A DNA stretch of 30,403 bases from IMG/VR virus record IMGVR_UViG_3300014073_000001. One strand, written 5' to 3'. The notes under the pieces are model-generated. The model had not been told where the DNA came from. It made no database searches and saw only the letters and a list, made by a program, of their open reading frames with translations. Origin of the DNA: an uncultured virus (IMG/VR IMGVR_UViG_3300014073_000001). Its lineage: Duplodnaviria; Heunggongvirae; Uroviricota; Caudoviricetes. Of this stretch, positions 4,722 to 28,256 are shown in pieces; within the stretch, counting starts at the first letter, position 1; each line of letters opens with the position of its first letter. The position numbers were made by a program, and so were the translations under genes.

Positions 4722-4742
4722 GTTAGTTCCTCCTCTACTTCA

Positions 4743-5894
4743 TTATTGAAGAATACGAATTCTGTTGATGGAATCTCCGAACTGACTAAAATCAATCGTG
4801 GTTTTTAGCACTACCGCATCAGAAATCTGAGCATCGACAACCATATCTTTCTTAACGGAGGTACGGTTGATAACGAATTTGTCAGTGCTCGCTACCAACT
4901 CGAACTTGCCGAACTCGCGCAACTCATTCCACTTGAAACGAGGGATCATAGCGAGCTCATTATCAGAGATGCCGTGCTGGTCAAATACATTGGCACTCGG
5001 AAAGGTCACGGAAACGTCGATCCACGTTTGATTGCGGTATGTTTTATAGCCGTTGTTGACGAAGATGAAATACTTTGTCGCTTCGGTATAAAACAAACGA
5101 GGATATACGCCGGTACGAAGTACCCATAGTTTCTTTTCGAAGTTGTAGTATTGGTCGGTCCATTTGTCGAAAGTGGCCGGAGTTTCCATTTCGGCTTTCG
5201 TCTTAGAGCCGACACCGGTTAACGGATTTTTGGTGCTATCGAAATAGCTCTCGGTTACGGTGCCAGCAGTTACCGTGCCTACGACACCGCTACGGCCAGT
5301 ACCGCCACCGGTGATAGTTCCGCCGTAGAAGCAGTTTTTAATCACGCCATACGTGTTATTCAGTACGGAAGTGATGCCGCCGATGTTATTACCGGTACAG
5401 GTGATATCGACTTCGGAATAGCTGTTGATGATTCTGCCGCCATCCATACGGCCTGCAAGACCACCGATATCACCAGTCGCAAGAATCTTGCCGACCGCAA
5501 GGCAGTTTTCAATCAAGCATTCCTGAGTAGTCATCTGTCCAACGATACCTGCACAATAGGAAGTGCCGCCAACGATGTTGAAGCTGAATACGCCCAGGTT
5601 AGTAATGGCGCCACCGCGAGTGCTAGTGAACAAAGCCTGGTTATTCGCAATCCGGTTGATGAACAAGTTACGTACTACATAGCCATTACCGTCAAAATTA
5701 CCGCGGAACGCAGGGATCGGAGTCCAACCAGTGCCGTCGCTAGACTCGTTGCAGACTTGGGTCAAGTCGACATTTTTAATCAATTTGTAAGAGGCGGTGA
5801 GATTGTTTCGGACAAAGTTAAGATCATATCCGTCTTCGATTAGATACGGATTGTTGATAGAGCCGTCTCCGCCTGCGAATTTACCGTTAGCCAT
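4743..5894 (-). CDS. GLUG-motif beta-helix adhesin-like protein, 383 aa (tandem paralog)
   Basis: Starts MANGKFAGGDGSINNPYLIEDGYDL, has FRGNFDGNGY and IGGLAG/IGGITS motifs, and the shared C-terminal module. Its start overlaps the upstream stop (TAATG). Confidence 0.85.
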   Translation of the reverse strand: MANGKFAGGDGSINNPYLIEDGYDLNFVRNNLTASYKLIKNVDLTQVCNESSDGTGWTPIPAFRGNFDGNGYVVRNLFINRIANNQALFTSTRGGAITNLGVFSFNIVGGTSYCAGIVGQMTTQECLIENCLAVGKILATGDIGGLAGRMDGGRIINSYSEVDITCTGNNIGGITSVLNNTYGVIKNCFYGGTITGGGTGRSGVVGTVTAGTVTESYFDSTKNPLTGVGSKTKAEMETPATFDKWTDQYYNFEKKLWVLRTGVYPRLFYTEATKYFIFVNNGYKTYRNQTWIDVSVTFPSANVFDQHGISDNELAMIPRFKWNELREFGKFELVASTDKFVINRTSVKKDMVVDAQISDAVVLKTTIDFSQFGDSINRIRILQ

Positions 5895-7174
5895 TAAGCA
5901 ACAACTCCTTTATTCATGGTTACAATGTTATTACCAAAATCAGTGAACTTGATTTCTTTACGGAAGTAGTTTTTGTCTGCTGCCGAATTTGCTCCATCTA
6001 ATGTCATCGGAAAACTGACTGATTGCTGTGTCGTACCATTGGAAAGCTCAACTATGTTGATGATGTCAACCTTGGTGTTCGTTGCTCTGAGCACGTCCCA
6101 GGCGGTGTACGGAATATGAGAAATGCTCTTCATTCCGTTGTTAACAGCTTGAGCTCTTGTCGGCATGGTCGTATATTTAATTACCCACGATCCATTCTCA
6201 TAAACACAGTATCCGTCGTTAGTTCGTACAAAATATCTGTCTAAAAAGAATTGGCGGGGTAAAGGATAACGGGTTCCTTCTTCGTAATCCCAAATCTGAG
6301 AACCGTCACTCGTTAGGCGCAGATCCATATCGGAGAACCGGGTTTTAGTCATATTGTCTGTAGAGATGCCGGTAGTCCCAGGAGTGGCTGCCGTTAGCCA
6401 GCGAGTATTATCATAAAACAGATTGGAATATCCAGCGGCAAAGTATGCTACTCCACTAAAGGTGCCGAAAGACGTGGGATTTAATGAAGCATTTGCCAGG
6501 CCGTTGATCATATTGCTGAATGAGCAGGCGCTTATGACATAATTAAGGATAAAGTTCTTCGTTGCGCTGTTATATATAGTCCCGGCCACGGCGCCAAAAG
6601 CGGAGCTTACAGCAGAAGGCTGAAGGAAGACATCGATAAAGATGTCCTGGCCAAGACTAAATAACATTGCTTGAGAAGCAGCATCCCAGGTCATGTATCC
6701 GAAAATTCCGCCGCCATTTCCCTCTGCGGTAACTTTGCCGGAAAAATAGCAACGATCTACAATGTAATATGCAGGTGCTCCGCCAGCAGTTTGGTATATT
6801 ACAAGACCTCCGGCAAGAACCCCAACATTGGTTTTGCCAACGATATTGGCATTTTCGATGCAGAGATTACTTATCCGCTGCGGGTAATTGTCGATAACTT
6901 TAATATTCTCAAACAAACCGACACCGCTTTTGTCTGGGCGATTAATGAAGAGGTTGTAGATCTTTTTACCATTGCCGTCCAGTGTGCCAGCGAAGTCTTT
7001 TATGGGATTCCAACCCTTTCCAGTATTGTACGGTGCAGTACCAAGGTTGATACTGTATGCTAACTTAAAGTTAGAGTTAGGGAAATATCGAATTGCAAAA
7101 AGGTCTTCTGCATCTTCGATTAAGTACGGATTGTCTGGAATACCAGTGCCGCCGCCGAATTTTCCTTGTGCCAC
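5894..7174 (-). CDS. GLUG-motif beta-helix adhesin-like protein, 426 aa (tandem paralog)
   Basis: GTG start after AGGTGG. FGGGTGIPDNPYLIEDAEDL, LDGNGKKIYNLFINRP, VGVLAG, C-terminal FRKEIKF. Confidence 0.85.
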   Translation of the reverse strand: MAQGKFGGGTGIPDNPYLIEDAEDLFAIRYFPNSNFKLAYSINLGTAPYNTGKGWNPIKDFAGTLDGNGKKIYNLFINRPDKSGVGLFENIKVIDNYPQRISNLCIENANIVGKTNVGVLAGGLVIYQTAGGAPAYYIVDRCYFSGKVTAEGNGGGIFGYMTWDAASQAMLFSLGQDIFIDVFLQPSAVSSAFGAVAGTIYNSATKNFILNYVISACSFSNMINGLANASLNPTSFGTFSGVAYFAAGYSNLFYDNTRWLTAATPGTTGISTDNMTKTRFSDMDLRLTSDGSQIWDYEEGTRYPLPRQFFLDRYFVRTNDGYCVYENGSWVIKYTTMPTRAQAVNNGMKSISHIPYTAWDVLRATNTKVDIINIVELSNGTTQQSVSFPMTLDGANSAADKNYFRKEIKFTDFGNNIVTMNKGVVA

Positions 7175-7194
7175 GTTAGACCACCTGTCCTTTA

Positions 7195-8484
7195 CTAAAT
7201 ATTGATGATAGATAAGTTACCGCCCGATGCGGAGAACACGATCTCTTTGCGGAAGATTGTTTTGCTACTATTACTATTAGCAGCATCTTTGGCAAAATTA
7301 AACGGTGTTCCAAAAATACTAAATGTATCCGCCTTATCAATAATATTTACGATATACGGTTCATTATGGTTCTTGAAGAAATCCCATGCAGTTTGCGGGA
7401 TTTGTTCAAGATGCCGCATCCCTTTTTCAATTGCTTGCTGACGGCTAGGAATCGTATCGTTAACCATAGTCCAGCCAGTGGACGCCTTATACGTGTAGTG
7501 GCCGCCATCGCCACAGATATACAGATAGTCAGGTGATTGATGATATAGCTCAGGAGATTTGTCCGTAGGGAAATACCATTCAGGAGCATCATTGAATATT
7601 GCAGTCGGCAAAACAGCAGGAAACCTCGAAAGATCTTTCATTTCTTCAGAAGTTAAGCCAACTACGGAATTGGCATTAACGGCTACATTAGAAATAGTCC
7701 AAAGTGTTTTATCATATCGACAGCTATTTGCATACAAATTTTGCCCCTGGCGATGAAAGCATATCGGACCAACATTTGTCGGCGAAGCTACAATAGATGT
7801 ATCAATTTTGCCTTTACCAATACAGTTCGATAAAATGAAGATATTGTATTGGGCTGCCCAATAATCTTGCACATTTCCAAACATTTGGCCGTACATCGAT
7901 CCGCCCGTTAATGGGACGATTGTCACGTCTGCAACACAATCTCCGGCTACAAATGTCGTATAAGTATAGTTGGTGGCACCCCAGTAGTATTGTCCGCAAA
8001 AACCGCCTACGACAGATCGTCCACTCACTTTGCCCTGCACTGAACAACGAAGGAAGACGGCGTAGTCTGCGGAACTGGGATCACCGCGTAATTGACCGAT
8101 AGAATATGCGCCAAGTAATGCACCGACATAATCACGTCCGGTAACATCAACATTTTCTAGGCATAAATCATAGATTCTAACCTTTGTCATTTGGTCAAAA
8201 CTTGTCATATTGAAAGTCCTGAATATGCCGACATAATCTTCATCCGGACGGTTGATGTAAAGATTGTAAATCTTTTTACCGTTGCCATTAAAATTGCCGG
8301 CAAAGTTATCGATCGGTACCCAGCCTTTGTTCGCATTGTATGGCGCCACACCGAGATTGATATTCGAAACAAGTTTGTAATAAGCTGTTAAGTTGTTTCG
8401 AACCTGATGCAAGTCAGCTGCATCTTCTATGAGGAAAGGGGAGATAGCAGTGCCTGCCCCGCCCCCGAATTGACCTCCAGCCAT
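7195..8484 (-). CDS. GLUG-motif beta-helix adhesin-like protein, 429 aa (tandem paralog)
   Basis: FGGGAGTAISPFLIEDAADL, FNGNGKKIYNLYINRP, VGALLG/VGGFCG, C-terminal FRKEIVF. GAGGTG RBS. Confidence 0.85.
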   Translation of the reverse strand: MAGGQFGGGAGTAISPFLIEDAADLHQVRNNLTAYYKLVSNINLGVAPYNANKGWVPIDNFAGNFNGNGKKIYNLYINRPDEDYVGIFRTFNMTSFDQMTKVRIYDLCLENVDVTGRDYVGALLGAYSIGQLRGDPSSADYAVFLRCSVQGKVSGRSVVGGFCGQYYWGATNYTYTTFVAGDCVADVTIVPLTGGSMYGQMFGNVQDYWAAQYNIFILSNCIGKGKIDTSIVASPTNVGPICFHRQGQNLYANSCRYDKTLWTISNVAVNANSVVGLTSEEMKDLSRFPAVLPTAIFNDAPEWYFPTDKSPELYHQSPDYLYICGDGGHYTYKASTGWTMVNDTIPSRQQAIEKGMRHLEQIPQTAWDFFKNHNEPYIVNIIDKADTFSIFGTPFNFAKDAANSNSSKTIFRKEIVFSASGGNLSIINI

Positions 8485-8508
8485 AAATGACTCACCTCTT
8501 TCTTGTTA

Positions 8509-9837
8509 TTAAGGCACGATGCTGATGATATCATCGTTGAAACTTTCAAAGTTGATTTCTTTCTTGTAGCAAAGCATACTTTCATCATTTTGGGCGGTTA
8601 GCGGCAAAATTGCTGCAATCGAATTCAGCGATAGTCTTTCGGTTGGTTCCACGAAATTAACAATATCTACCTGTCCGTATGCGGCCCTTAATTGATTCCA
8701 ACCTTGAGTATCGATGTGATAAAGCGTCGGCATGCCTAAAGATAGAATTGTCGGCGTATCCTGAAGAACGTCGAATTGTTTCATCCATTTCTTTTGATCA
8801 GCATCGTATGTTAAATAGTCTTTGCCTGCCCGGACAAAGTAGCATTCCTGATTCGTGAACCAGAAAGTTGGATAGTGCCCTTCCCTGAAACGGTATAATG
8901 TTTTGCCGTATGGAGTAATTAGGTCTTTGAATGTACTGTACAAAGAAAACGCTTTGAGATTGGCTGTTGTAACTGCCGTTACTCCTGCATTGGCGAGGTT
9001 GCCGCCAAACAGTGTAGAATCATAAAAGCAGTTGGTGTTAAAGGATGCTGGTGCTACAGGATTACTGGGATGCATACCAATATGCGACCTTGCAATTTGA
9101 TTGGCATCGGTCGTAATGAATGTACATAATGAAATTGAGTTAGCTACGCCACCAGCATAGTTGTATACGTAATTGCCGATATTGTAATTATAGTGGTATG
9201 TCGCCGCACCATAACCGACTATGCCGCCCATAATTCTCTCAGATGCTGTATCTGGCGCTACGCAGTTGATCTCGCACATAGATATCGCATCAATTATAAA
9301 GTTGTTCCAGTCTGCGCCCCAGTATACATTACCGATACCACCTGGGAAATAAGCCAGACCTACGATCCCACCTAAGCGGCTTTGACCGATGATTTTACCG
9401 GTTACATATACTCTGGTTAATATGTTGGCAGGGGGAATATAATTTGTGTTGATTGTCCATGCTACTGTTCCAACCAGCCCGCCGACGTTTTGTTTCCCGG
9501 TTACATTGACATCCTCCAGAGCCACATCGTAAATGATTGGATCTGTCCATGCTACTGGCAATGAAATTACACCAAATAAACCAACTGAGTCAATATCTGA
9601 TCTGTTGATAAATAAGTTTATAATTTTCTTGCCGTTGCCGTTGAACCTGCCGAGAAAGTTGTTGATCGGCAACCAGCCTGAGCCGATATTATATGGAGGC
9701 ACACCCAAGTTGATATTGTTGATCAACTTGTAGTTGGCAGTAAGGTTCTTTCTGATGGCGTCGAGGTCGGCCGCATCTTCGATCAAATATGGGGTAGCAG
9801 CTGTTCCGTTGCCGCCTGCAAACATGCCATAAGCCAT
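8509..9837 (-). CDS. GLUG-motif beta-helix adhesin-like protein, 442 aa (tandem paralog)
   Basis: FAGGNGTAATPYLIEDAADL, VGGLVG/LGGIVG/MGGIVG, C-terminal YKKEINF. TAATG overlap with the upstream gene. Confidence 0.85.
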   Translation of the reverse strand: MAYGMFAGGNGTAATPYLIEDAADLDAIRKNLTANYKLINNINLGVPPYNIGSGWLPINNFLGRFNGNGKKIINLFINRSDIDSVGLFGVISLPVAWTDPIIYDVALEDVNVTGKQNVGGLVGTVAWTINTNYIPPANILTRVYVTGKIIGQSRLGGIVGLAYFPGGIGNVYWGADWNNFIIDAISMCEINCVAPDTASERIMGGIVGYGAATYHYNYNIGNYVYNYAGGVANSISLCTFITTDANQIARSHIGMHPSNPVAPASFNTNCFYDSTLFGGNLANAGVTAVTTANLKAFSLYSTFKDLITPYGKTLYRFREGHYPTFWFTNQECYFVRAGKDYLTYDADQKKWMKQFDVLQDTPTILSLGMPTLYHIDTQGWNQLRAAYGQVDIVNFVEPTERLSLNSIAAILPLTAQNDESMLCYKKEINFESFNDDIISIVP

Positions 9838-11138
9838 TATTCATTCACCGCCTTATCTGCCATAAATATTCCATGATCGAAATCATCAAGATGGATTTCT
9901 TTTCTCCAGACTTGTTTGTTGGAGTAATCGTGAGCGGCGTCACGGTCAAATGACACATTGTTGTCTTTGAACGTTAACCCACCAGATTTGTCTACGATGT
10001 CAATGATTTCGATATTCGCATGACCGAGCGATTGCAGCATATTCCACGCTTTGCGATCAATATCCGACAAAGATTTCATGCCGTACTGAAGAGCCTCTTG
10101 GTAGGTAGGAATTCGGTCGTATTTTTCTATCCACTGCTTATTGTCAGCATCATAGATGTAATATTTACCGTCCGTCTTGATGAACAGGTTGTTGAGTTCT
10201 AAGAACCACAAGCGTGGGAATCTTTCGAACCCAAAGACCCATGTGCTTCCACCGGTAGAGATTTTTTTCAGCTCCAGATCGGGGAACTCTTCTTTGAGGA
10301 CCATCTTATCGGACGTTTTAGCAACATGACCAGTAGTCTGTTTACCGTTCCATATGGTGCTGTCATAAATAGAAGTTTCCAGAGTGGGGTTGACTACCGT
10401 CACATTGGTAGGCGGATAAGCAGACCAAAGATTTGGGGCATTGCCGCCAGAGTATTGATAGTTGCCACGGGCGATACAATCCTTAAATCGAGGGATATTC
10501 GCGCTAACCCCGTTTATGTTGCCGAACATCAGCCCTGCGTTAGATTGATCTGTCGGAACGATAAGTTGAACATCTATTAAGCAGTCTTCCATTAGACGCC
10601 AGTTATAGGCATTGTTGCCATAAACATAAAGTTGGCCGATCATTCCGCCGAAATACTGTTGCCCTGAAACTGTCCCGCTAACATGGATCTTTTCAAGAAC
10701 CAATGCTGAGCTGTCAGTAATATGGACATCGTTTTGTTTTCTGGCATATACATAGCCAGCCAAGATGCCAACGTAGTTTCTGCCTACAATCTTGGCGTTC
10801 TCAATACTGATATTACATATACGACCAGTGTAGTTTTGCCCAAGAGAGCCGTAGAAGTCAAGGCTTACTTTTGAGAATAGGCCTACGTAGTCGGTATCCG
10901 GCATCGTGATCTTAAGGTTGGAAATCTTTTTGCAGTTACCATCAAGGGCGCCTGCAAATGTGCCAGGAATAGGAATCCATCCAAGCTTGTCGAATGGAGA
11001 GACATCCAAGTTTATGTTATTGGCCAGCTTATAATATTTAGCGAGGTTAAAACGAATTGCGTATAAATCGTAAGCATCCTCGATCATATACGGATCATTT
11101 AATACGCCAGTGCCGCCGCCGAAAAATCCGTTTGCCAT
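9837..11138 (-). CDS. GLUG-motif beta-helix adhesin-like protein, 433 aa (tandem paralog)
   Basis: FGGGTGVLNDPYMIEDAYDL, VGILAG/FGGMIG, C-terminal WRKEIHL. AGGAGG RBS. Confidence 0.85.
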   Translation of the reverse strand: MANGFFGGGTGVLNDPYMIEDAYDLYAIRFNLAKYYKLANNINLDVSPFDKLGWIPIPGTFAGALDGNCKKISNLKITMPDTDYVGLFSKVSLDFYGSLGQNYTGRICNISIENAKIVGRNYVGILAGYVYARKQNDVHITDSSALVLEKIHVSGTVSGQQYFGGMIGQLYVYGNNAYNWRLMEDCLIDVQLIVPTDQSNAGLMFGNINGVSANIPRFKDCIARGNYQYSGGNAPNLWSAYPPTNVTVVNPTLETSIYDSTIWNGKQTTGHVAKTSDKMVLKEEFPDLELKKISTGGSTWVFGFERFPRLWFLELNNLFIKTDGKYYIYDADNKQWIEKYDRIPTYQEALQYGMKSLSDIDRKAWNMLQSLGHANIEIIDIVDKSGGLTFKDNNVSFDRDAAHDYSNKQVWRKEIHLDDFDHGIFMADKAVNE

Positions 11139-17820: not shown

Positions 17821-19635
17821 TTACATTATAAAGGCGTAAGATGATCCGTAAGTTACAACTACTGACCCTTCGATATCTTCTCCCCATTTGGGTCTAGAAT
17901 GTAATGTGCCAACAAGATTATCATAGGCGTGTCGCTTAACAATCAAACTTCCGTTAATGTTTTTGCTATCATGCTGCCGTATGATAATATGTCCCTGAAT
18001 ATCTGCTTCCTTATCAATTCTAGGAATAACTACAAATCCATCAAGCGTTATTTTATCGACCTGTTTTACTACTACTGATCCGCTTAAATCGAGTTCATTT
18101 TCTTTAGAATTCAATACTAATGAGCCTTGAAGATCGATAAAATCTGTTGCACGTACCTTTATCGCCCCCGTGAGTTCATTACGTTTTTCTATTCCCACTA
18201 AAGTAAATAAACCATTTAAAGAAGTTTGATTTTTTTGTTTGGAGATTATAGAGCCGACAAAATCACTGTATTTTGCATTTTGCGTAATTAATATGGAACC
18301 ATCTAAAATTCGTTCGTCTCCTTGCCTTACTACTATTGAGCCCGGTAGAATAGCGTATTTTAATTTTGAAGTGATTGACATAGAGCCATTTAAAACTATA
18401 TTATCTTGTTGTTTGATTACGATTGAACCAGGGAAATTAGTGTCTTTTAATTTTGAAGCAATCAACATGGAACCATTTATAGCTGAACCATCTTCTTGCT
18501 TTACTACAATATAGCCTGAAAAATCATTTTGGTTCTGGATATTAACCATAGTTATTGATCCATTAATATATGATTCAGCTATTTGTTTGCTAACAATAGA
18601 TCCAGAAAGCTCTGTTCTGACAGTTTTTTTTGTGATTATTAATGAACCAACAAATTCGTTCATATTTTTCTTACATACAGTTAAATTACCAACGATTTCT
18701 TTGGTATTCTGTTTTTTATTTATAAGAAGGAAACCCTGTAAATCATCACGGAAAAGGCCATTAGTGATATGAAGACTTCCGGCAAGAATTGCTGTGTTCT
18801 GAAAACGAGGGGTTAAACTGCCGCGCATGTCAAGAACACCCGCACTTGGAGGAAAGTACTGATAAGCATACTCAAGTAGTGGTGCATCATCAGTTTCACG
18901 TGATCCAAATGTAATAGGTATGGTCAAAGTCGTATTTGATACGTCACGAATTGTAAAGCTGATAATTTGGCTTGTTGTTGCATTTTGCTTAAAAAAGTTA
19001 AATAAATTAAACTCGATATAACTTGCACCCAACGGAATATTTGCTGTTGCAATCATTTTAGAAAGTGGCGATTGGTTTACCCAGTTTACGCCGGTCTCCG
19101 ACCAGTCCGATTTGCTGGTAGTGTATAGAGTTAATGTCGTTGCCTTGTTGACCGGACGAACAAGACGCAATCGCAATTTGGCATATTTAAGGTTTTCAAG
19201 ATCAGCTGAATCTATCGCCTGCAAGTTGAAAGCCAATGTCGATCGATATTCTTCGTTCGCTGATATTTTACCAACGGCAAGCTCGCTCCCCAGTCCAAAC
19301 TGTAAATAAGGAGCATTAGATGCTAAGTTTGCATCTTTAATAGGCACTGATTGAACGGTTTTTACAGGCGGTTCCACAACGTTTACACAACCAACCATGC
19401 GGTTATTAGGTCGAACACTGATAGAACCAAATAAATCCTGCATTCCTTTTTGTTTAACCGTTAAGAAGCCATTAATTTCTTCATGATGATTAACATTTTT
19501 ATAATCCAGTGAGCCATTGAGATTTGTGCTGTCTTTTCGCTTTACTACGATAGAACCATGGGCATCTTGTTCTCCGACACCTTTCACAAGAACATTCGCA
19601 GTCATCTGGTTTGTTTGTTGACCAAACACTGTCAT
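17821..19635 (-). CDS. DNRLRE/CBM96-like domain protein with ~29 tandem 14/15-aa beta repeats (~604 aa)
   Basis: DANLAS...G...LAVG...YRSTLAFNL...AKLRL...WSETGVNWVNQ...FGSRE...PLLEYAY (~18858-19365). About 23 C-terminal and 6 N-terminal (L/I/F)xGS(I/L)x(V/I) repeats. Start moved to ATG 19635 because GAGGTG precedes it. Confidence 0.8.
   Translation of the reverse strand: MTVFGQQTNQMTANVLVKGVGEQDAHGSIVVKRKDSTNLNGSLDYKNVNHHEEINGFLTVKQKGMQDLFGSISVRPNNRMVGCVNVVEPPVKTVQSVPIKDANLASNAPYLQFGLGSELAVGKISANEEYRSTLAFNLQAIDSADLENLKYAKLRLRLVRPVNKATTLTLYTTSKSDWSETGVNWVNQSPLSKMIATANIPLGASYIEFNLFNFFKQNATTSQIISFTIRDVSNTTLTIPITFGSRETDDAPLLEYAYQYFPPSAGVLDMRGSLTPRFQNTAILAGSLHITNGLFRDDLQGFLLINKKQNTKEIVGNLTVCKKNMNEFVGSLIITKKTVRTELSGSIVSKQIAESYINGSITMVNIQNQNDFSGYIVVKQEDGSAINGSMLIASKLKDTNFPGSIVIKQQDNIVLNGSMSITSKLKYAILPGSIVVRQGDERILDGSILITQNAKYSDFVGSIISKQKNQTSLNGLFTLVGIEKRNELTGAIKVRATDFIDLQGSLVLNSKENELDLSGSVVVKQVDKITLDGFVVIPRIDKEADIQGHIIIRQHDSKNINGSLIVKRHAYDNLVGTLHSRPKWGEDIEGSVVVTYGSSYAFIM
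17845..18835 (-). repeat. Coding tandem repeat, ~23 units of mostly alternating 14/15 aa (87-nt dyad)
   Basis: For example FSGYIVVKQEDGSAINGSMLIASKLKDTN / FPGSIVIKQQDNIVLNGSMSITSKLKYAI. TTTAATTTTGAAG recurs 87 nt apart near 18360 and 18447. Confidence 0.85.
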
Positions 19636-19730
19636 TTTTACACCTCTTCTCATTGTATTGAGAGCTATTTAATAAAGACTTTAAGCTGGTTTATATCACC
19701 TCAAAATATTATCAACCACTCATTTAACTG

Positions 19731-19752
19731 TATTACCTTAAGATTCGTCCTA
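19731..19752 (-). promoter_or_regulatory. Promoter-like motif TAGG-N12-GTAATA upstream of the DNRLRE gene
   Basis: Minus strand TTAATTAGGACGAATCTTAAGGTAATA, 22/27 identical to the copy at 27067-27093. Confidence 0.55.
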
Positions 19753-21510
19753 ATTAATAGAAATGGTGTTGATAAACTTATCAAGCTGAACCTCAGCTAA
19801 ATTCAAAGCTCTCTTTGATGAATTTAACCTTTTTTTGTTACGAGGTTTGGCCATTTCTAAGAAATCGATATTATCTTGTATAAATCCGCCGTCAATGCTT
19901 CTCATAGTTCGTTCTGCACTGGTGCGGAATTGTTGTTCTTTGTACACATGCACAACAGCTTCTCCGAAGTCTCCAGCGGGTGATTCAACCTCAATCTTAA
20001 TAACATTATCCCCAACCGTTAGATTGGGAGTGTCTATAGAAGCTTCGACAAGTCTGATATTTTGAGCCGTATTGAATGGAACTTTTTCAATTCCGTTAAC
20101 TAGTATTCTCCAAGAAACATCGCGTTGTTCAGGCGGTGCCGGATAATCTGCTTGTATAGTTAATTCCTCTATGCTGGCGGCATTAGTCGAAGCTGATTTT
20201 TCTAAATAGAATCCGAAACGCAGTTTTTTAGAATCCCTTATTAAATAATTCCACAGCTCCGATGTAATAGCTGACAATGCAGATGACGAAAGACACTTAG
20301 CAGACACATTAGTCAAATCTCTTGTATCTATAGCTGCTAAGTTTACACCGGTCCAGCTTGCTCCCCCGTCATTACTTACTATTACACCCACCTTGCTGTT
20401 GCCACTTGTAGTGGAGGTTAAAGTGATTGAGTCTAAATTAGATATATCTGATAAGTCTATATCTTGGTTCATAAGCAGTAACTTTGGCTTTGGGACGATT
20501 GTTAATTTAGCTTTTGGAGAAGTTGCTGTCTCATCCGTCCAATACAACAATTCTGGAGAGCCTAATTGAGATAATACCTCGTCGGTTAGTGAAGTTAACG
20601 CCATGGTGCTGGACATAAATTTTTCCTCTGTGACATCTGCAGGGTAAGAGCCTACGTCCTCCCATTTAGATTCAACATACTTTTTAAGCTTGTCATTATC
20701 TCTTATAAGATATCTTCTCTCGGGCCAGGCTCCCCAAGCATATGGGCCTCCATACACTCCAATAGATGATCTACTACTGTCAGGATTTAAAATAGTAGGG
20801 TCTCCAGTTTTATTCCACCCTGTAATGGTAATATTATAGTTACTATCTAGACTTGTAGTATTTATAGAATATGTCGTAGTTGGTATGACAATCTTAGTAT
20901 CCATTTTATCTGTACTTGGAACCGATAAAGACCCATTGTATATGCAGTTAATCATCTTTGCATTCGTAGTCATGTATAATCCATTATCATAAGCGCTACC
21001 AATTCGATGATTTAAACTAACTGAGAAAACACAATTTTTATAAGTAATATTTAAAGTACTAGTACCCCCATTTCTAAATCCAATCCCTACAGCTATTTTT
21101 GTAGAATTTGGATCCATTGTCCAAGTAGGATACTTTAATATACAATTGTAAAATTCTAGAGTTAATATAGTTTTATTTATATAATAATGTGTATTATTGG
21201 GATTACCAGCAAATACAGTATTATAGATACTTAAAATTTTTCCAGCTTGCGGGACTGGAATTGCTAATGTTTGTTTTTTATTTCCTATTATAGCTCTTGC
21301 ATTCACAGCCATATATCCAGCCACATCAGCAGTATTACTTATAAGATAAATACAATCAGTATATGCTGATGCTGTTCCAGCTTTAGATAGAGTTTTATAT
21401 GGTAATTCTATACTGCCATTACCGGTTGTATCGCTTCCATTTATTCCATCGACGTACCATATCTTATTAAAAGACATCGTTGTTTTATTTATTTTAATTG
21501 TCTCAGCCAT
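19750..21510 (-). CDS. 586-aa protein: DUF1565/pectin-lyase-like beta-helix head, connector domain, partial Ig plus shared tail
   Basis: WYVDGINGSDTTGNGSIELPYKTLSKA start motif and DSSRSSIGVYGGPYAW cap. VSNDGGASW...W..L...LRFGFYL connector also seen in the 666- and 964-aa proteins. KEQQFRTSAERTMRSIDGGF tail. Confidence 0.8.
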   Translation of the reverse strand: MAETIKINKTTMSFNKIWYVDGINGSDTTGNGSIELPYKTLSKAGTASAYTDCIYLISNTADVAGYMAVNARAIIGNKKQTLAIPVPQAGKILSIYNTVFAGNPNNTHYYINKTILTLEFYNCILKYPTWTMDPNSTKIAVGIGFRNGGTSTLNITYKNCVFSVSLNHRIGSAYDNGLYMTTNAKMINCIYNGSLSVPSTDKMDTKIVIPTTTYSINTTSLDSNYNITITGWNKTGDPTILNPDSSRSSIGVYGGPYAWGAWPERRYLIRDNDKLKKYVESKWEDVGSYPADVTEEKFMSSTMALTSLTDEVLSQLGSPELLYWTDETATSPKAKLTIVPKPKLLLMNQDIDLSDISNLDSITLTSTTSGNSKVGVIVSNDGGASWTGVNLAAIDTRDLTNVSAKCLSSSALSAITSELWNYLIRDSKKLRFGFYLEKSASTNAASIEELTIQADYPAPPEQRDVSWRILVNGIEKVPFNTAQNIRLVEASIDTPNLTVGDNVIKIEVESPAGDFGEAVVHVYKEQQFRTSAERTMRSIDGGFIQDNIDFLEMAKPRNKKRLNSSKRALNLAEVQLDKFINTISIN

Positions 21511-21514
21511 TATT

Positions 21515-21835
21515 TTAAATCACCTCAACTTTTTCTATAGTTTTTATCATAAATGAGGTAAGCAGCGAGACAAACATTTGCCCAGTCCCGATTTGCCCAA
21601 GATCAGTCATGTCGGCAGTTATTGAAGACTGCATGCAAATCGCACCATTTAATAAGATAGAGCTATCAATTCCGTTAAACTTACTTGCTTCTGTTTCATC
21701 AAAATTAAGCAAAGTCTTTTTTACATTGCTTTGTCCGGCATCATAATCAATATTGGCCTTAATCCCTACCTGGCTATGATTATTATAGACATGAGTAGGA
21801 GTCACTTTAGTAAAGGTTATATTTATTTCAGACAT
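21515..21835 (-). CDS. 106-aa protein, apparently chimeric (first strands of the Ig adaptor plus an unrelated C-terminus)
   Basis: GAGGAG RBS. NITFTKVTPTHVY matches NITIKKVTPTHIY (404 aa) and IKVTPTHVY (363 aa). Ends KTIEKVEVI. Confidence 0.75.
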   Translation of the reverse strand: MSEINITFTKVTPTHVYNNHSQVGIKANIDYDAGQSNVKKTLLNFDETEASKFNGIDSSILLNGAICMQSSITADMTDLGQIGTGQMFVSLLTSFMIKTIEKVEVI

Positions 21836-21867: not shown

Positions 21868-23082
21868 TTATTTAATTTGTATTTTTTTGATATATTTGCT
21901 TAGGACCACTTCAAAATTATTATCAGTAAGATTCGTAGGAATAGTTGATGATAAACTGAGAGCTTTAGCAGAATTATCAAAACCGATGTTTTTTTTATAG
22001 TATCCCCCATCAAAACTTAAAAAAGTTCGGCTCGCAATTGTTCTGCCATTTGCTTCTTTGGTTACAGTAAAGATGCCTGATTGATTGTCATCTGATATGA
22101 TCGTGATCGTATTAGTATCATCATTTAGCTCATCGACGGATATTTCTCGTATAGTTTTTAAACTAAAGTCCGAAAGCAGTATAGAATTAAGCATTGTCTT
22201 GTAGCTATGTGGGATATAACCTCCCGCCCCATCGGGCTGTAATGCTTCAGCCTCAACAGAGATTTTATTTACTTGTCGGGGATATATATGTGTTGGCGTT
22301 ACTTTCTTAATAGTTATATTAGAAAATGGCACTGACAGCGTTTTGCTATTTGATGCTTCTAATGAGCCATCTGAAGCGGTTATCTTTATTGTGTTATTGC
22401 CGCTTTTCAGAGCGTCTCGCGGGATTGAAACAGTTCCTGTGTATGGCGAACTAAAAAAATCACTCCATCCCGAGGCCGGAAAAAATTGTGTTCCGTTGAC
22501 TTGCACCTGATATTTGATCAATGAACTATCAGGATCTATTATTGATATTGACACTATAAATGTGTCCGCATCTGCTTGAGAAATGGAAATATTGCTTATG
22601 TTTGGAGGCATTTGTGCAATACCTTCTTTAACATACCAGTAGCCGTCAGTATGCCTGCCATTTGTCGGGTATGCTCCATCAACTGCCGTAACTACTTGCA
22701 TATAATTACCTTTAGAATAGCTAACAGTAGCGTCAGTCGCTGCATTCCACGCATCGCAAACATTCCCAGAGTTTGAACTCATCCATTTGTATACTAATTT
22801 TATAATTGACTTATATCTTTCTATATAACCATCTTTATAAGCAGGAGACCCAACTCCTATGTAGCATGGGGAGCTACTAGTAGATTGGCTGATAACCCCC
22901 GTATAATAGGTATCGAGTTCATATAAGCCTGTTGATCCATTAAAGGAGTAGGAAGTGCATCCGCGTTCATAAGAAACGCCATATGCACTTCCATTCCAAG
23001 TATACGGTGTTGCGTCCCACTTTTTGGTATATGTTGTGGTGCTGTTACAAGAATACTTGTTGTATGAATAATAAACTGTCAT
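21868..23082 (-). CDS. 404-aa adhesin/fibre-tip-like protein: Tyr/Ser-rich variable head, two Ig-like domains, shared tail
   Basis: YYSYNKY...YSKG...AVDGAYPTNGRHTDGYWYV; paralog of the adjacent gene; AAGGAG RBS. Confidence 0.8.
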   Translation of the reverse strand: MTVYYSYNKYSCNSTTTYTKKWDATPYTWNGSAYGVSYERGCTSYSFNGSTGLYELDTYYTGVISQSTSSSPCYIGVGSPAYKDGYIERYKSIIKLVYKWMSSNSGNVCDAWNAATDATVSYSKGNYMQVVTAVDGAYPTNGRHTDGYWYVKEGIAQMPPNISNISISQADADTFIVSISIIDPDSSLIKYQVQVNGTQFFPASGWSDFFSSPYTGTVSIPRDALKSGNNTIKITASDGSLEASNSKTLSVPFSNITIKKVTPTHIYPRQVNKISVEAEALQPDGAGGYIPHSYKTMLNSILLSDFSLKTIREISVDELNDDTNTITIISDDNQSGIFTVTKEANGRTIASRTFLSFDGGYYKKNIGFDNSAKALSLSSTIPTNLTDNNFEVVLSKYIKKIQIK

Positions 23083-23134: not shown

Positions 23135-24319
23135 TTAACTGATTCGAATATTGCAAATGAATTTATCCAGATTAACGACAAGCTCTTCGTCTACAATGTC
23201 GTATTTGCTTCGAAATTTGTTTTTTACTTTACTGTCTAAATCATTTGCATAAATATTGTTTTGAATAAAGCCGCCAGAAATTGAGCAAAAGAATCGTTCA
23301 GACGCTATTCTATATAACTCTTCCTTTTTTACGATTATAGATACAGTTTGATTATCATCAGATCTGATTGTTAGTGTATTGTTACCAACATTAAAGTGGC
23401 TATTATTAATTGCTCGGGATGTCTCGGCGCTCATGTCTGACACCATGGTTCCATTAACTTCTATACTAAAACTATGCTCGATTTTTCCGCCGAAACCATC
23501 GTCTTGCAAAGCCTGTACAGAGATTATACAGCTAGTATGTTGTCCGTCATAAAGAACTAATGGAGTTACCTGGCTAATGTTTACATTAGAAAAAGGGATG
23601 TCAATGTGACTTATATAGCTATTCTGATCTTCTGTGTCATATACATCAATTTTTATAGTATTTAAACCTTGTAGCAAACTGTCTCTTTTGACAATATAAG
23701 TAGCGGTATATGGCACCGCAACCAATTCGCTCCATCCTGTAGCGGCTGGATATTGAAATCCATTTAAGTTCATTTTATATTGCACCCAATTGCTATCCCG
23801 ATCAGTAATATTTATAATGACTTTAAATTCATCTTTACTGATTTGGACACAATCAATTGCTGCGATTGGCAGAATGTTTGTAATAGCTCCTCTTACATAC
23901 CAATAACCATCAGTATGTCTTCCGTCATTAGGATACGTTCCATCTTCAGCTACAAGGTTTTCTAGTACCAATGTCCCTTTAGAATAAATTAAATCTGATG
24001 TCGCTCTCATCGCTGAGAAATAGGCAGAAGCAAAAACACCACCATAACCGGTGCTTGTGTATTTTAAAAGATATCGAGTTATGGTATTATTGCTTGAAAC
24101 ATAGTAGTATTTACCAGATTCTATCTTGCCAGCAGATGATTGTACGCCAGCATAGTATTGTGCGCCAGCATTTGCGAATATTCCGGTGGATGCATTTAGG
24201 CTGTAGGACGAATATAGAACATAGTATTGATTGTTTGTAGTGAAATCAGAAAGCGTTTCGAAATCTCCTACTACATATGAAGCGATAGCATTATATTTGC
24301 TATAGTAATATTTGGACAT
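23135..24319 (-). CDS. ~394-aa paralog of the 404-aa protein
   Basis: KYYYSKY...YSKG...AEDGTYPNDGRHTDGYWYV. Start moved to ATG 24319 because GAGGTG precedes it. Confidence 0.8.
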   Translation of the reverse strand: MSKYYYSKYNAIASYVVGDFETLSDFTTNNQYYVLYSSYSLNASTGIFANAGAQYYAGVQSSAGKIESGKYYYVSSNNTITRYLLKYTSTGYGGVFASAYFSAMRATSDLIYSKGTLVLENLVAEDGTYPNDGRHTDGYWYVRGAITNILPIAAIDCVQISKDEFKVIINITDRDSNWVQYKMNLNGFQYPAATGWSELVAVPYTATYIVKRDSLLQGLNTIKIDVYDTEDQNSYISHIDIPFSNVNISQVTPLVLYDGQHTSCIISVQALQDDGFGGKIEHSFSIEVNGTMVSDMSAETSRAINNSHFNVGNNTLTIRSDDNQTVSIIVKKEELYRIASERFFCSISGGFIQNNIYANDLDSKVKNKFRSKYDIVDEELVVNLDKFICNIRIS

Positions 24320-24348
24320 CAATTTCACCTCTTATTTAATGCAACTAT

Positions 24349-24411: not shown

Positions 24412-26412
24412 TTAAGCTGGATCTGCCTTGGCAGAAATGTCAAAATCGCCGCCACCGTAACTGGCTTTAGTAGTACGAATTCTTACAAATATAGATTTCT
24501 TTTCATTCTGCATTAACGTACCTACGGTGATGTTATTAGTTGGAGTAAACGGATTTTCATTGACAGATAATTCAGCATAGACATTTGTAGGTAATTCAGG
24601 AGATGTTAAGATAGTAAGATTTTTAAGATCAAATCCACACTTATTAACAACATATACTTCTTTCGGCACTGATATTTGTCCAGCAATCAAAGTTCCGAAA
24701 TCAAGTTTTTGAATTATTTCTCCTAAATCGGTTGAATAAAAATCACCTGTAAGATTCGTAAACAATATGCCATAATAGGCTCCTACGAATTGTTCCTCTG
24801 TAAATCCTAATTCTTGAAACTCGTCTCTAAATTCAACCCGAAGTGTATTGATTATTCCGAAGTTAATTTCTCTTTTATCTATTTCGTATATGATAGTTGC
24901 AGGAGACTGATTTAAATTAGTCCATGAAACCTTTTCTATGCCATTAAATAAAATTCTATACTGAACATTATCATTGTCCGGGTCTTCAACAACCGCACGA
25001 TAAATGTTTCCGGACAACACACCAGTTATAATTGGAGCGATATTCGTTCTTGTAATAAAAACTGTATTCTCAGTTTTCAGTCCTCGTGCATCAGTCGCTT
25101 CAATTCTTACAGCATTTAATCCGATAACAAATAAATTACTTGGAATCGCAATATTAACATACCCATCTGCCGGAACGCCCCTGACCCCTTGGTATTCTGC
25201 TCCATTGAAGAACGTTTCGTATGTTATATCGTCTTCTTCTGGGTCATAAATTTTACAAGAAACAATGACATCTTCTTTATGCATATTATCGGGGGTAGCT
25301 GCAACATTTATGATATTCGGCCCGGAGTTAGGAGGAAGCGATACCACGAAAGAGGTTAAGCTTTCTCCTGTAAAGTCATAGTTTAGTGCGTTGTAACCGC
25401 TTGGGACATTGTTTACAAAAGCAGTGTCGCCAAAATTAAATGTTGCCGTTGCTGTAGCTCCACTAGCACCATTATTAATAGAAGGATATAGTGTTTGAGT
25501 ATATCCGGAATACAAAACTCCTAAGTTTACATTGTTTTTATAAACTTCGATTTTTTTACTGTCAGCATCTATTGCAAACCCAAGAATGTCGCCTGCTATA
25601 AGATTTGTGGTAAATGTAGAAACAGCGCCGTTTATATATTTTTGATTCAAAGTATAAGCGTAATATACACCGTTTGTTGAAGCGTAATTTATGGCTGCCT
25701 CTGAAGCAAGTCCCATCAGCAAACTTCCTGATTGATAGGTAGTTTCAAAATACCATTTCCCGGTTGCTGGTATTGGTTTGTTGCCCTTACTAATAGAATT
25801 CGTTCCATTTGCAAGAAGAGCTGTAAGATTATTATCACTCAAAGTGCAGTTAACTGATTTAACTGGATCTAAAGAGTTAAAACCAGGCCTTATTTGAGCA
25901 CTCTTTAAATAACACATGATGTCTAATTGTGTACGCAAAAACACTTGAGCCCAATCAGCGGGCTGAAGCGATTGAATGGCTTCTTTAGACATGCCTTGTG
26001 CCTCAATATCGCCCGGCGAGATAGCCTGCCATGTTCCATTAACTCTACTTTTCCAGCTTTCACCACTGTCAAAACTAACTGCAAATTTTCCGCCTACACC
26101 GTTAATGCTGATACCATTAATGCCAGAATAACCATGGAGATCAATAGCTGTGATCGGAGTCGTTTGAACAATGCCATAGTCAACAGGTGTAATATCGACA
26201 ACTGGCGTCACTCCGGCATCAGTATGAATTAAGAGTTTGCCGTTCGCGAGTGAAGCATAGTCCTCGTTATTCAGTAACGTCAACTCTGTATCAGTGAATC
26301 CTTGATTAAAATTTTGAGATTCTATCTGTACAAGTTCACCAGAGGCATTAGCTGTAAAGTAAAGCAGATTTCCCAATGAAGGTTCAGTTGTAATTAAATA
26401 TTTGTTTGCCAT
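24412..26412 (-). CDS. 666-aa hub protein with SPRY domain, two Ig-like domains and C-terminal LDFGT...N domain
   Basis: TLSDNNLT...GKWYFE...GDILGFAIDADSKKIEVYKN...LYPSI...FNFGDTAF...PSGY (~25383-25869) is a SPRY/B30.2-like signature. The C-terminal half parallels the 964-aa protein. Confidence 0.85.
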   Translation of the reverse strand: MANKYLITTEPSLGNLLYFTANASGELVQIESQNFNQGFTDTELTLLNNEDYASLANGKLLIHTDAGVTPVVDITPVDYGIVQTTPITAIDLHGYSGINGISINGVGGKFAVSFDSGESWKSRVNGTWQAISPGDIEAQGMSKEAIQSLQPADWAQVFLRTQLDIMCYLKSAQIRPGFNSLDPVKSVNCTLSDNNLTALLANGTNSISKGNKPIPATGKWYFETTYQSGSLLMGLASEAAINYASTNGVYYAYTLNQKYINGAVSTFTTNLIAGDILGFAIDADSKKIEVYKNNVNLGVLYSGYTQTLYPSINNGASGATATATFNFGDTAFVNNVPSGYNALNYDFTGESLTSFVVSLPPNSGPNIINVAATPDNMHKEDVIVSCKIYDPEEDDITYETFFNGAEYQGVRGVPADGYVNIAIPSNLFVIGLNAVRIEATDARGLKTENTVFITRTNIAPIITGVLSGNIYRAVVEDPDNDNVQYRILFNGIEKVSWTNLNQSPATIIYEIDKREINFGIINTLRVEFRDEFQELGFTEEQFVGAYYGILFTNLTGDFYSTDLGEIIQKLDFGTLIAGQISVPKEVYVVNKCGFDLKNLTILTSPELPTNVYAELSVNENPFTPTNNITVGTLMQNEKKSIFVRIRTTKASYGGGDFDISAKADPA

Positions 26413-27164: not shown

Positions 27165-28256
27165 TTAAATCTCTACTTTATTAGTATATCTATCTAACTC
27201 GACTCCAAATACTCTCCCTGAAGAGGAAGATAGGTAGGGCTGCTGCTTGTACTTCGAACGTATCTTAGCAGATTCGACGAATGAGATGTTCTCTTGTGTA
27301 TAACCACCATCTAATGATATAAATGTTCTTTTTACGCTTGTTCGTTGATAAGCTTCTTTAAAGATTTGCACTGAAAAGGAACCACTTAATACGCCTGCTG
27401 CTAACCTAATAGTAACAGTATTATCTCCAGAGGCTAAATCATTATAATCCACGCTCAAACAAACATTTTGATCTGTAATAGGTACACCTATTTGTTTTTC
27501 ATCCCCGTTTATAGATAAAGTAGCTTGTACATTACTTAAAGCGTCAAAGTCTTCGATAAGCGCTGTTATCTTTACTGGAGATGTATTCGTATACACATGA
27601 GTAGGTGTCACTTTTATTGGCGTAGCGTAGATGCTAGGTTCTGTTACTATTAAAATTGGCCTGAAGCCAGTGGAAGCTACTGATAAAGCAGAAGTTACAC
27701 CATATGAAAATCCAGATATCCCGCTATACCCTCTTACTACACGGTTAGAAGCATCATAACTAGTAGACGTCCATGACCAAGCACCTGAAGGGAACCATGT
27801 ATTTGTATCTCCTGCTGTTATTGTGCCACCCAAATTAGACTCTACTATAATTTTAGTCCATTCATTGTCTACATCAGTAGAATTGATACCGCCAGTTACT
27901 AATCTAATCACATATTCATCAGATTTACCGTCTATAGTAGTAGGAACACCTGATCCACTCGCTACGCCAGCTGTATTCAATGTATCCCATGATATCCCGC
28001 ATTGAATATTTCTGTCGGCTATAAATTTTTTATTTCCAAGTCTATCGTATCCTACTAGTATAAATTTAAAATATCCATTTGGTGTTTGAGATGGTGACGA
28101 TGGTAATGTTAATCCAGTTACACTTCCATCTGAATAGCCTACACCTAATTCTTTAAATATCCCATATGTATTTGCTGTTAAAGCAGTATATTTACACCAT
28201 ACATAATCTCCTGCTGTGACTGCTTGCCAAACAGAAGGTTTGCATACTAATGCCAT
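27165..28256 (-). CDS. 363-aa protein: C-type-lectin-like (GFRP) head, Ig-like domain and shared tail
   Basis: IADRNIQCGISWDTLN...IRLVTGG...NEW...WSWT...RVVRG...GFRPIL, then KVTPTHVY...KEAYQRTSVKRTFISLDGGY. Confidence 0.78.
   Translation of the reverse strand: MALVCKPSVWQAVTAGDYVWCKYTALTANTYGIFKELGVGYSDGSVTGLTLPSSPSQTPNGYFKFILVGYDRLGNKKFIADRNIQCGISWDTLNTAGVASGSGVPTTIDGKSDEYVIRLVTGGINSTDVDNEWTKIIVESNLGGTITAGDTNTWFPSGAWSWTSTSYDASNRVVRGYSGISGFSYGVTSALSVASTGFRPILIVTEPSIYATPIKVTPTHVYTNTSPVKITALIEDFDALSNVQATLSINGDEKQIGVPITDQNVCLSVDYNDLASGDNTVTIRLAAGVLSGSFSVQIFKEAYQRTSVKRTFISLDGGYTQENISFVESAKIRSKYKQQPYLSSSSGRVFGVELDRYTNKVEI

Follow-up and report, generated by a model that had tools for sequence, protein, structure and literature searches.

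A probable insertion inside an immunoglobulin-like module of a phage structural gene, with both chimeric products retained

How did one structural domain come to be divided between two neighbouring phage genes? The question is raised by a stretch of 30,403 nucleotides (nt) from an uncultured virus of the Caudoviricetes (IMG/VR record IMGVR_UViG_3300014073_000001), which we refer to at its full length as the window. It is a structural-gene array of a large Bacillota phage, with distant protein matches to the Brevibacillus phages Jenst and SecTim467, the Bacillus phages SP-15 and G, and the Listeria phage LIS04, and every gene in it lies on the minus strand. The two genes in question encode products of 106 and 586 amino acid residues (aa). 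The first, p106 (21515..21835), has GAGGAG 8 nt upstream of its ATG; the second, p586 (19750..21510), begins after a 4-nt spacer behind the p106 stop codon, with its ribosome-binding site (RBS), GAGGTG, inside the end of p106. An initial annotation had proposed that a block of 1.6 kb interrupts the gene of a headless adaptor at one point of an immunoglobulin (Ig)-like domain. Four results now speak for that proposal: the split of a family profile at the residues DY, the alignment of both halves to one contiguous protein, the point at which the similarity of the p586 head stops, and the match of the rest of p106 to a family of fibre-like proteins, here called X. Both genes are chimeric, and both break at the same coordinate.

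Several genes of the window end in one common module of about 150 aa for which there is no Pfam model. Its three parts are an Ig-like domain, whose first strand is VTPTHxY, then the region KE..YR..ERTF.S.DGGY and last the tail LDK(F/Y)I.KI.V. Complete copies, used here for reference, end the paralogs p404 (residues 248-404; 21868..22341) and p397 (residues 241-397; 23135..23608). The 363-aa gene at 27165-28256 is the fourth in the window to carry the module (residues 214-363; 27165..27617), and its product is identical to the database representative P0030. Profile A2, built from the aligned C-terminal modules of p404, p397 and p586, was searched against 1.84 billion representatives and matched 49 of them at an expectation value (E) of 0.001 or less. 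In 41 of the 49 the match begins at profile position 15 or earlier, that is, with the VTPTHxY strand. The other eight are the short proteins P0038 and P0044 (70-79 aa), the multi-repeat proteins P0042, P0045, P0052 and P0062 with short Ig-only matches, the partial P0043, and P0007, the only long protein that matches from position 44 to the end of the profile. P0038 (79 aa) and P0044 (70 aa) cover no more than an internal or C-terminal portion of the module, at profile positions 85-157 and 50-118, and could be fragments at contig ends or further split modules. Across the family the heads that precede the module are of many kinds, and some members are essentially headless and start at strand A, as p106 does: P0048 (156 aa), P0018 (169 aa) and P0040 (177 aa).

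The distribution of the module over p106 and p586 was measured with a hidden Markov model (HMM) of the family. It was made from 34 of the 49 matches, from which P0030, the window's own 363-aa product, was then removed to leave 33 outside members; P0015, P0016 and P0007 had been left out as belonging to the window's lineage, and P0038, P0042-P0045, P0050, P0052, P0054, P0056 and P0060-P0062 as fragmentary, multi-stretch or not retrieved. With this HMM, residues 1-31 of p106 scored 25.7 bits (E 4.2e-10; p106 3-29 on HMM positions 8-35) and residues 32-106 scored 0.4 bits, while residues 456-586 of p586 scored 82.1 bits (positions 40-154) and residues 1-455 scored -2.2 bits; the match of P0007 begins at position 37. 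The opening of the module, strand A with its VTPTHxY motif and strand B, is thus present on p106 and missing from p586, and the remainder, namely strands C-G, the DGGY region and the tail, is present on p586 and missing from p106 32-106. On the DNA, p106 codons 1-31 (21743..21835) comprise the start codon and strands A and B, with the motif in the form VTPTHVY, and end at D30-Y31. Residues 456-586 of p586 with the stop codon (19750..20145) keep strands C-G, a KE..R..AERT..SIDGG region and the tail LDKFINTISIN. The scores of the four pieces therefore mean that p106 and p586 hold complementary, non-overlapping parts of the module, cut at DY, just as the initial annotation had described a 106-aa gene with the first part and a 586-aa gene with the rest. 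Judged by these profile scores, the complementarity is far beyond chance. A reading of p106 as a full but compacted copy of the module, as drawn in a MAFFT alignment (A1), was rejected: against the module, residues 32-106 fall below shuffled sequences (hhalign score 8.5, against 11.0 +/- 2.0 for shuffles) and they match X instead. With a 4-sequence module alignment, hhalign joined residues 5-19 of p106 only.

Both halves can be placed on a single chain. P0024, a metagenomic protein of 501 aa from a contig of 224,689 bases, contains the two halves contiguously: p106 4-43 aligns to its residues 343-384 (E 1e-8), with the A-B segment on 343-370, and p586 449-585 aligns to its residues 361-500 (E 5e-22). 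Its F370 is the counterpart of both p106 Y31 and p586 Y456. When each half was scored against 36 family modules, P0024 ranked first for each, and the two lists of scores were correlated (Spearman 0.60, p 1.3e-4). Given that P0024 is best for both and that the scores run in parallel, the halves stem from the same module subtype, of which P0024 represents the uninterrupted form. It differs in its head, which is of the GDxIxCxYT...PNG.FYF..AGYD type, and its identity is only 31-43%, making it a cousin and not the parental allele.

What follows the break in p106, codons 32-106 with the stop codon (21515..21742), would be the left part of the inserted DNA and resembles the C-terminal part of X-family proteins. 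One of these is a 187-aa open reading frame (ORF) of the Parageobacillus phage JGon-2020a (CP063417.1; locus L001, 3373-3936), located immediately upstream of that phage's homolog of the p586 head. Residues 29-106 of p106 align to the last 78 residues of this protein (109-186), C-terminus to C-terminus (BLASTP E 3e-6). In Smith-Waterman comparisons, p106 32-106 gave z-scores of 9.3 with the JGon-2020a protein and 6.3 with a 309-aa ORF of locus L010, and neither score was reached in any of 500 shuffles; residues 1-31 had no similarity to the X proteins (z -0.4 and 0.4). An HMM of six X proteins matched p106 with 8.4 bits (E 1.7e-4), the ends being in register. The similarity runs over the last 75-80 residues to the C-terminus, in the pattern FD.S....F ... 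D....TG ... K.I.K tail, and the family is formed by the C-terminal regions of the 187-aa ORF, the 309-aa ORF and ORFs of L011-L014 and L016. X-like ORFs occur at E <= 1e-20 in 7 of 21 loci compared (L001, L010, L011, L012, L013, L014 and L016), and that of L010 lies directly downstream of the head gene. The family overlaps phrog_15809 and phrog_21223, both matched by the JGon-2020a protein (E 1.3e-21 and 7.2e-9). Adjacent parts of phrog_15809, positions 58-194 and 198-362, are matched by X and by the middle domain of the head, and phrog_16348 is involved in the same manner; such neighbouring matches on the same PHROG profiles indicate that some phages have a single protein in which X-like segments are joined to middle-domain segments.

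The first 455 residues of p586 form a head with relatives of its own. Residues 1-266 (20713..21510) are a right-handed beta-helix-type head with a native N-terminus, MxxxIKIN...FNKIWYV, and residues 267-455 (20146..20712) are a beta-sandwich middle domain ending in ...IEELTIQAD. Homologs of the head (P0008-P0014, P0025, P0039 and proteins of 20 viral loci) share the N-terminus, the beta-helix and the beta-sandwich, and they diverge after ...LLVDM, ...TADM or ...ICDY, at the place where p586 has ...IQADY. PHROG profiles stop there too: phrog_5811 (267-453), phrog_15809 (333-455) and phrog_16348 (291-455) all end at p586 453-455, so that a divergence of the block's homologs at DY, which the initial annotation had proposed to check, is what is found. 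The JGon-2020a locus, an unannotated record, has the same gene order, X and then beta-helix head, and its 494-aa head homolog (3977-5461) matches p586 14-473 with 27% identity (E 3e-34). It differs in that X is full length (187 aa) and lacks the module hairpin, and in that the head ends in its own C-terminus, ...DMKGSW...YKINY, instead of the module. Pfam adds little on the head: P0007 matched DUF1565 with 20.6 bits (cut-off 20.3) over residues 23-65 only and a Pel9A-like model with 19.2 bits, under the cut-off of 25.2, and P0002 had no Pfam match at E <= 1.

The best explanation of this arrangement, to which we assign a probability of roughly 0.78, is that a headless module gene received one block, consisting of an X 3' end, an RBS and a beta-helix head, at a point between Ig strands B and C. 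A single old illegitimate recombination would have given p106 and p586 as its two products. In it, a block of about 1.6 kb would have entered a small headless module gene of some 161 codons between strands B and C, carrying the 3'-terminal 75 codons and the stop codon of a fibre-like gene of the X family, then an RBS and the first 455 codons of a gene for a beta-helix-plus-beta-sandwich head. The right junction would have joined the new head, in frame, to strands C-G of the module and its tail, giving p586, a putative receptor-binding or depolymerase-like protein presumably attached to the virion through the remaining part of the module. At the left junction the old RBS, start codon and strands A-B would have been fused in frame to the X C-terminal domain, with the 106-aa chimera p106 as the result. 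From the matches to X, to the module HMM and to P0024, the inserted block would be the 1600 nt at 20149..21748 (minus strand), one copy of the hexamer GATTAT being counted. That there was a single event, that the block entered a headless gene and not the reverse, that the module serves for anchoring and that p106 keeps any role are what we infer from these matches.

The breaks coincide to the residue on the module, and one insertion explains every part, whereas two independent events would need a coincidence. In such a two-step history, which we regard as improbable, one recombination would have put a head onto a module lacking A-B and another would have put the 5' end of a module onto an X gene, the two sharing a break coordinate. 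Mosaic exchange is frequent in this array, as the p586 core that differs from P0007 between flanks about 90% or more identical illustrates, and the B-C strand loop is the variable, indel-prone part of the module family. Against this, both breaks fall on P0024 F370 with no module residue lost or duplicated, both halves have the same nearest family member among the 36, and the genes stand next to each other, ordered as expected from a single insertion.

If a block was inserted, was it a mobile element? The plus strand has ATAATC at 20143-20148 and at 21743-21748, 1600 nt apart; on the coding strand this is GAT TAT, in frame in both genes, encoding D455-Y456 of p586 at the right end of the block and D30-Y31 of p106 at the left. 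These coordinates, the reading frame and the spacing had been given in the initial annotation and are correct. Since p106 and p586 are one frame apart, removal of 1600 nt would keep the reading frame, the start of one codon meeting the start of another, and by arithmetic it would yield 31 + 130 = 161 codons, the headless product that had been foreseen. The interval contains the 3' part of p106, the 4-nt spacer and the first 455 codons of p586, and nothing else. The earlier description of it as the end of one gene and most of a beta-helix gene with its own RBS and no transposase is therefore accurate, with the addition that the gene end belongs to the X family. An active cassette, mobile or excisable, be it a transposon-like element that duplicated 6 bp of its target or a system of site-specific shuffling, could point to the GATTAT at both ends and to a CCGG that lies directly after the right copy and 4 nt after the left one. 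We nevertheless consider it very improbable. No ORF within the interval or adjoining it encodes a transposase, integrase or invertase, p106 and p586 being the only ORFs of the interval, which gave no transposase or recombinase match in Pfam or PHROG; there are no terminal inverted repeats at its ends; and the arrangement is fixed in three of three variants (see below). The hexamer itself is at chance frequency, the window having 26 copies where 31.7 +/- 5.3 would be expected, and 91 of 100 shuffles having at least 26, in keeping with the initial judgement that the 6-bp match is weak and that domain complementarity is the main evidence. A longer exact direct repeat of 13 nt, TTAACGGAATTGA on the coding strand, occurs at 20087-20099 and 21666-21678, the copies 1579 nt apart. 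They stand in the same codon phase (FNGID, p106 53-57; VNGIE, p586 471-475), so recombination between them would also be in frame; a repeat of this length is reached in 6.7% of dinucleotide shuffles.

The arrangement is shared by close relatives. The p106 cluster has three members, all of 106 aa, on contigs of 154,403, 33,530 and 163,998 bases. On the latter two are the p106 orthologs P0063 and P0064 (99% and 95% identical to the window copy) and the p586 orthologs P0006 and P0007, of which P0007 (561 aa, 65% identity) has the same DYPAPPEQRD junction. Both junctions are thus real and both ORFs are kept in three phage variants. The view that these are ordinary, separately evolved genes whose similarity amounts to a short motif or an assembly artefact has next to no weight with us. 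It is true that the rest of p106 has no detectable module similarity and that VTPTHxY is family-wide. The motif, however, stands only at the module start in the 41 of 49 matches counted above, p586 is the one long member without it, and the same two genes recur on three separate contigs. In p106, the variable columns among the three variants are 59, 82, 87, 91 and 100, all in the X part, and residues 1-58 are invariant. The p586 copies differ by up to 35%: compared with P0007, p586 is about 90% or more identical from residue 231 on, and the beta-helix core (about 40-230) is strongly different, with both of its flanks at about 90% or more. The core (window 20750-21500) also has a G+C content of 0.28-0.32, compared with 0.39-0.42 in the rest of the p586 gene. 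The divergence and lower G+C of the core suggest a second, later exchange inside the head. Because the arrangement is intact in all three variants, the event predates them and the later exchange affected the head. The initial annotation had seen here a snapshot of how heads are grafted. The grafting is supported, and the recent date is not: this is a fixed arrangement and not a snapshot in progress. The architecture is not widespread in full-length form either, only three close variants carrying it.

Several observations weigh against the insertion model. The GATTAT repeat, being at chance level, is no evidence by itself, and window repeat scans found no longer direct or inverted repeat or junction homology at the interval ends. 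The X similarity is remote, at 24% identity, and in PHROG neither p106 32-106 (at E <= 0.1) nor whole p106 had a match. X lies directly upstream of the head gene in only 1 of the 21 loci, that of JGon-2020a, and is not adjacent to it in L012, L013, L014 and L016. The members of the family profile were recruited by a profile derived from the window, so that they are independent in sequence content and not in recruitment. The head closes with a strand, LTIQAD, that is similar to module strand B (EIKAD/GIKAN), and the right junction could therefore shift a few residues either way; the same likeness may have made the in-frame graft tolerable. Finally, searches of viral, genome and metagenome contigs and protein homolog searches found no uninterrupted allele, such as the 161-aa form that had been suggested for a search among relatives, no high-identity donor phage and no excised form. 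No close relatives of p586 or p106 were found among those contigs, and blastn against phages gave no match. Beyond its own cluster p106 had no homologs of 58-186 aa, and it had none of 187-2000 aa, shorter proteins not having been searched.

Does the divided domain still function as one? It had been suggested that the domain is completed in trans, and we addressed this with structure predictions. For p586 267-586, an AlphaFold2 (AF2) model based on alignment A4 had an overall pLDDT (predicted local distance difference test) of 73.3, with 82-96 in the Ig part, and strands at p586 464-471, 474-483, 500-509 and 515-524. VIA-align matched it to Ig, FN3 and PKD domains with middling Z-scores of 5.0-6.5 over 56-71 residues, in model residues 192-262 only (p586 458-528). 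The small reference domains were aligned over their last two-thirds (4xed 30-96 of 97, 3pe9 27-90 of 90, 3pdg 27-91 of 91 and 9kvu 34-95 of 94), and model residues 73-188 aligned separately as the middle domain with its own last strands (VIA row 20). Foldseek against the PDB returned nothing at E <= 0.001. Alignment A4 had placed the family's strands A-B over p586 429-455, a bias towards a complete domain. Since the matches are confined to 192-262 despite that bias, the p586 Ig domain does not appear to model as complete on its own, the matches covering no complete seven-strand sandwich. AF2 of p106 alone was uninformative (pLDDT 36.7).

A two-chain prediction combined p586 267-586 (alignment A4) with p106 (alignment A5) in three runs, next to three controls. 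The median of the interface score ipSAE was 0.48 (runs 0.57, 0.33 and 0.48) and the best control scored 0.00; the runs agreed in at least 33% of contacts, the partner pLDDT was at least 40, and no interface was returned. The mark used for such predictions is reached by 116 of 157 solved complexes and by 2 of 215 mismatched pairs, and it is reached with an ipSAE of 0.60 or less by 18 of the 157 complexes and by both of the passing mismatches.

These results bear on a possibility that extends the insertion model and leaves it in place: the A-B hairpin of p106 might dock on the incomplete p586 Ig sandwich by strand complementation, such that two adjacent, closely coupled genes make one anchor to which p106 adds a second, X-type C-terminal tail. 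We regard this as possible and, on balance, somewhat unlikely. It would fit the Ig matches that reach only the last two-thirds of the reference domains (Z 5.2-6.2 for the examples above), and the ipSAE of 0.48 against 0.00 leans slightly towards it. It would also suit the 4-nt distance between the genes and the retention of p106 at 106 aa in all three variants, whose five variable columns lie within residues 59-100, a clustering with a probability of (48/106)^5, or about 0.02 by our arithmetic, if substitutions were uniform. On the other side, a pass of this class is, barring prior likelihood, wrong more often than right. A4 and A5 both contain the contiguous members P0018, P0024, P0040 and P0048, whose covariation within a domain may mimic an interface, and halves of a split gene tend to pass anyway. 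The Z-scores are middling, the pLDDT of p106 alone is low, and the p106 variants are only 5% apart, making their conservation weak evidence. The suggested completion in trans is thus weakly predicted.

The surroundings of the two genes are rich in related structures. In the order of transcription, p666 (24412-26412), p397 (23135-24328) and p404 (21868-23082) precede p106 and p586, and two 610-aa genes follow; PHROG matches in the array are to uncharacterised or structural families. Scans for promoters and terminators were at background (21 against 16.4 expected and 1 against 2.1 expected). In the product of p666 a SPRY domain (E 3.3e-6) is accompanied by two more Ig-like repeats, in which the strand YRILFNGIEKV resembles that of p586. 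The gene at 17821-19653 has an 87-nt periodic repeat in five tandem copies (18209-18603), with a sixth 954 nt away (19511-19557); these encode 29-aa repeats of the GS..V.Q type, and the 610-aa protein, which contains CBM96 (E 9e-17), matches the 4401-position profile phrog_11333. Five tandem genes of 383-442 aa (4743-11138) and a 964-aa gene (1827-4721) have a common N-terminus, MA.G.F.GG.G...PY.IEDA.DL (phrog_21223 positions 280-436), and diverge afterwards, a polarity opposite to that of the C-terminal module family. A two-strand tail of similar type, F..TI.L..(Y/F)..I..I.V and then a stop, closes many fibre-like proteins that are otherwise unrelated, examples being ...KTIEKVEVI, ...KFINTISIN, ...KKIDKLQFLI and ...DIRSIRVEVK. 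It is found in the window genes at 4743, 11156, 21515, 19750, 21868, 23135 and 27165 and in loci L010-L016, and may be an attachment element that different families have in common.

Klebsiella and Enterobacteria phages have modular receptor-binding proteins, in which a conserved anchor is combined with a swapped specificity module (PMC8262889, PMC10408124). As those reports describe them, these systems share with the present locus conserved attachment modules, horizontally exchanged heads, tandem genes and a beta-helix-type head. In the same accounts the anchor is N-terminal and exchange takes place at linkers, whereas here the module is C-terminal and the break lies within a domain, between strands B and C; here, too, both reciprocal junction products survive as ORFs. 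A second parallel comes from a phage with a split nrdA, which we take to be Aeromonas phage Aeh1. The nrdA gene of a T4-like phage is split by an inserted homing-endonuclease gene, and the pieces of the ribonucleotide reductase reassemble (PMC3045599). The likeness is that a phage gene is cut by inserted DNA, that both pieces are kept as ORFs and that function may return by non-covalent assembly. The difference is that the insert here is structural-gene DNA that forms part of both products, that no homing endonuclease is involved, and that reassembly is weakly predicted. A limited literature search, a thin basis for claiming absence from print, found no comparable case.

Exchange of receptor-binding modules is how phages change hosts, and such events are usually inferred from one linker junction. 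At the present locus both reciprocal junctions of what we take to be a single event survive, their parts can be assigned to three families (module, X and head), and another phage shows a gene order that a donor could plausibly have had. It would follow that a whole block of stop codon, RBS and new head can enter a folded domain and yet yield a conserved gene pair. The locus also defines a putative anchor module that is C-terminal, not N-terminal, and is common to no fewer than 49 protein clusters whose heads vary greatly and which include small headless forms. If the split domain does reassemble, nature would here have made an Ig-like domain from two chains, which could serve as a template for grafting fibres non-covalently. 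In that case p106 would bridge the new beta-helix fibre to the virion via its second, X-type C-terminal tail, and insertion within a domain followed by complementation in trans would be a phage route to branched fibres.

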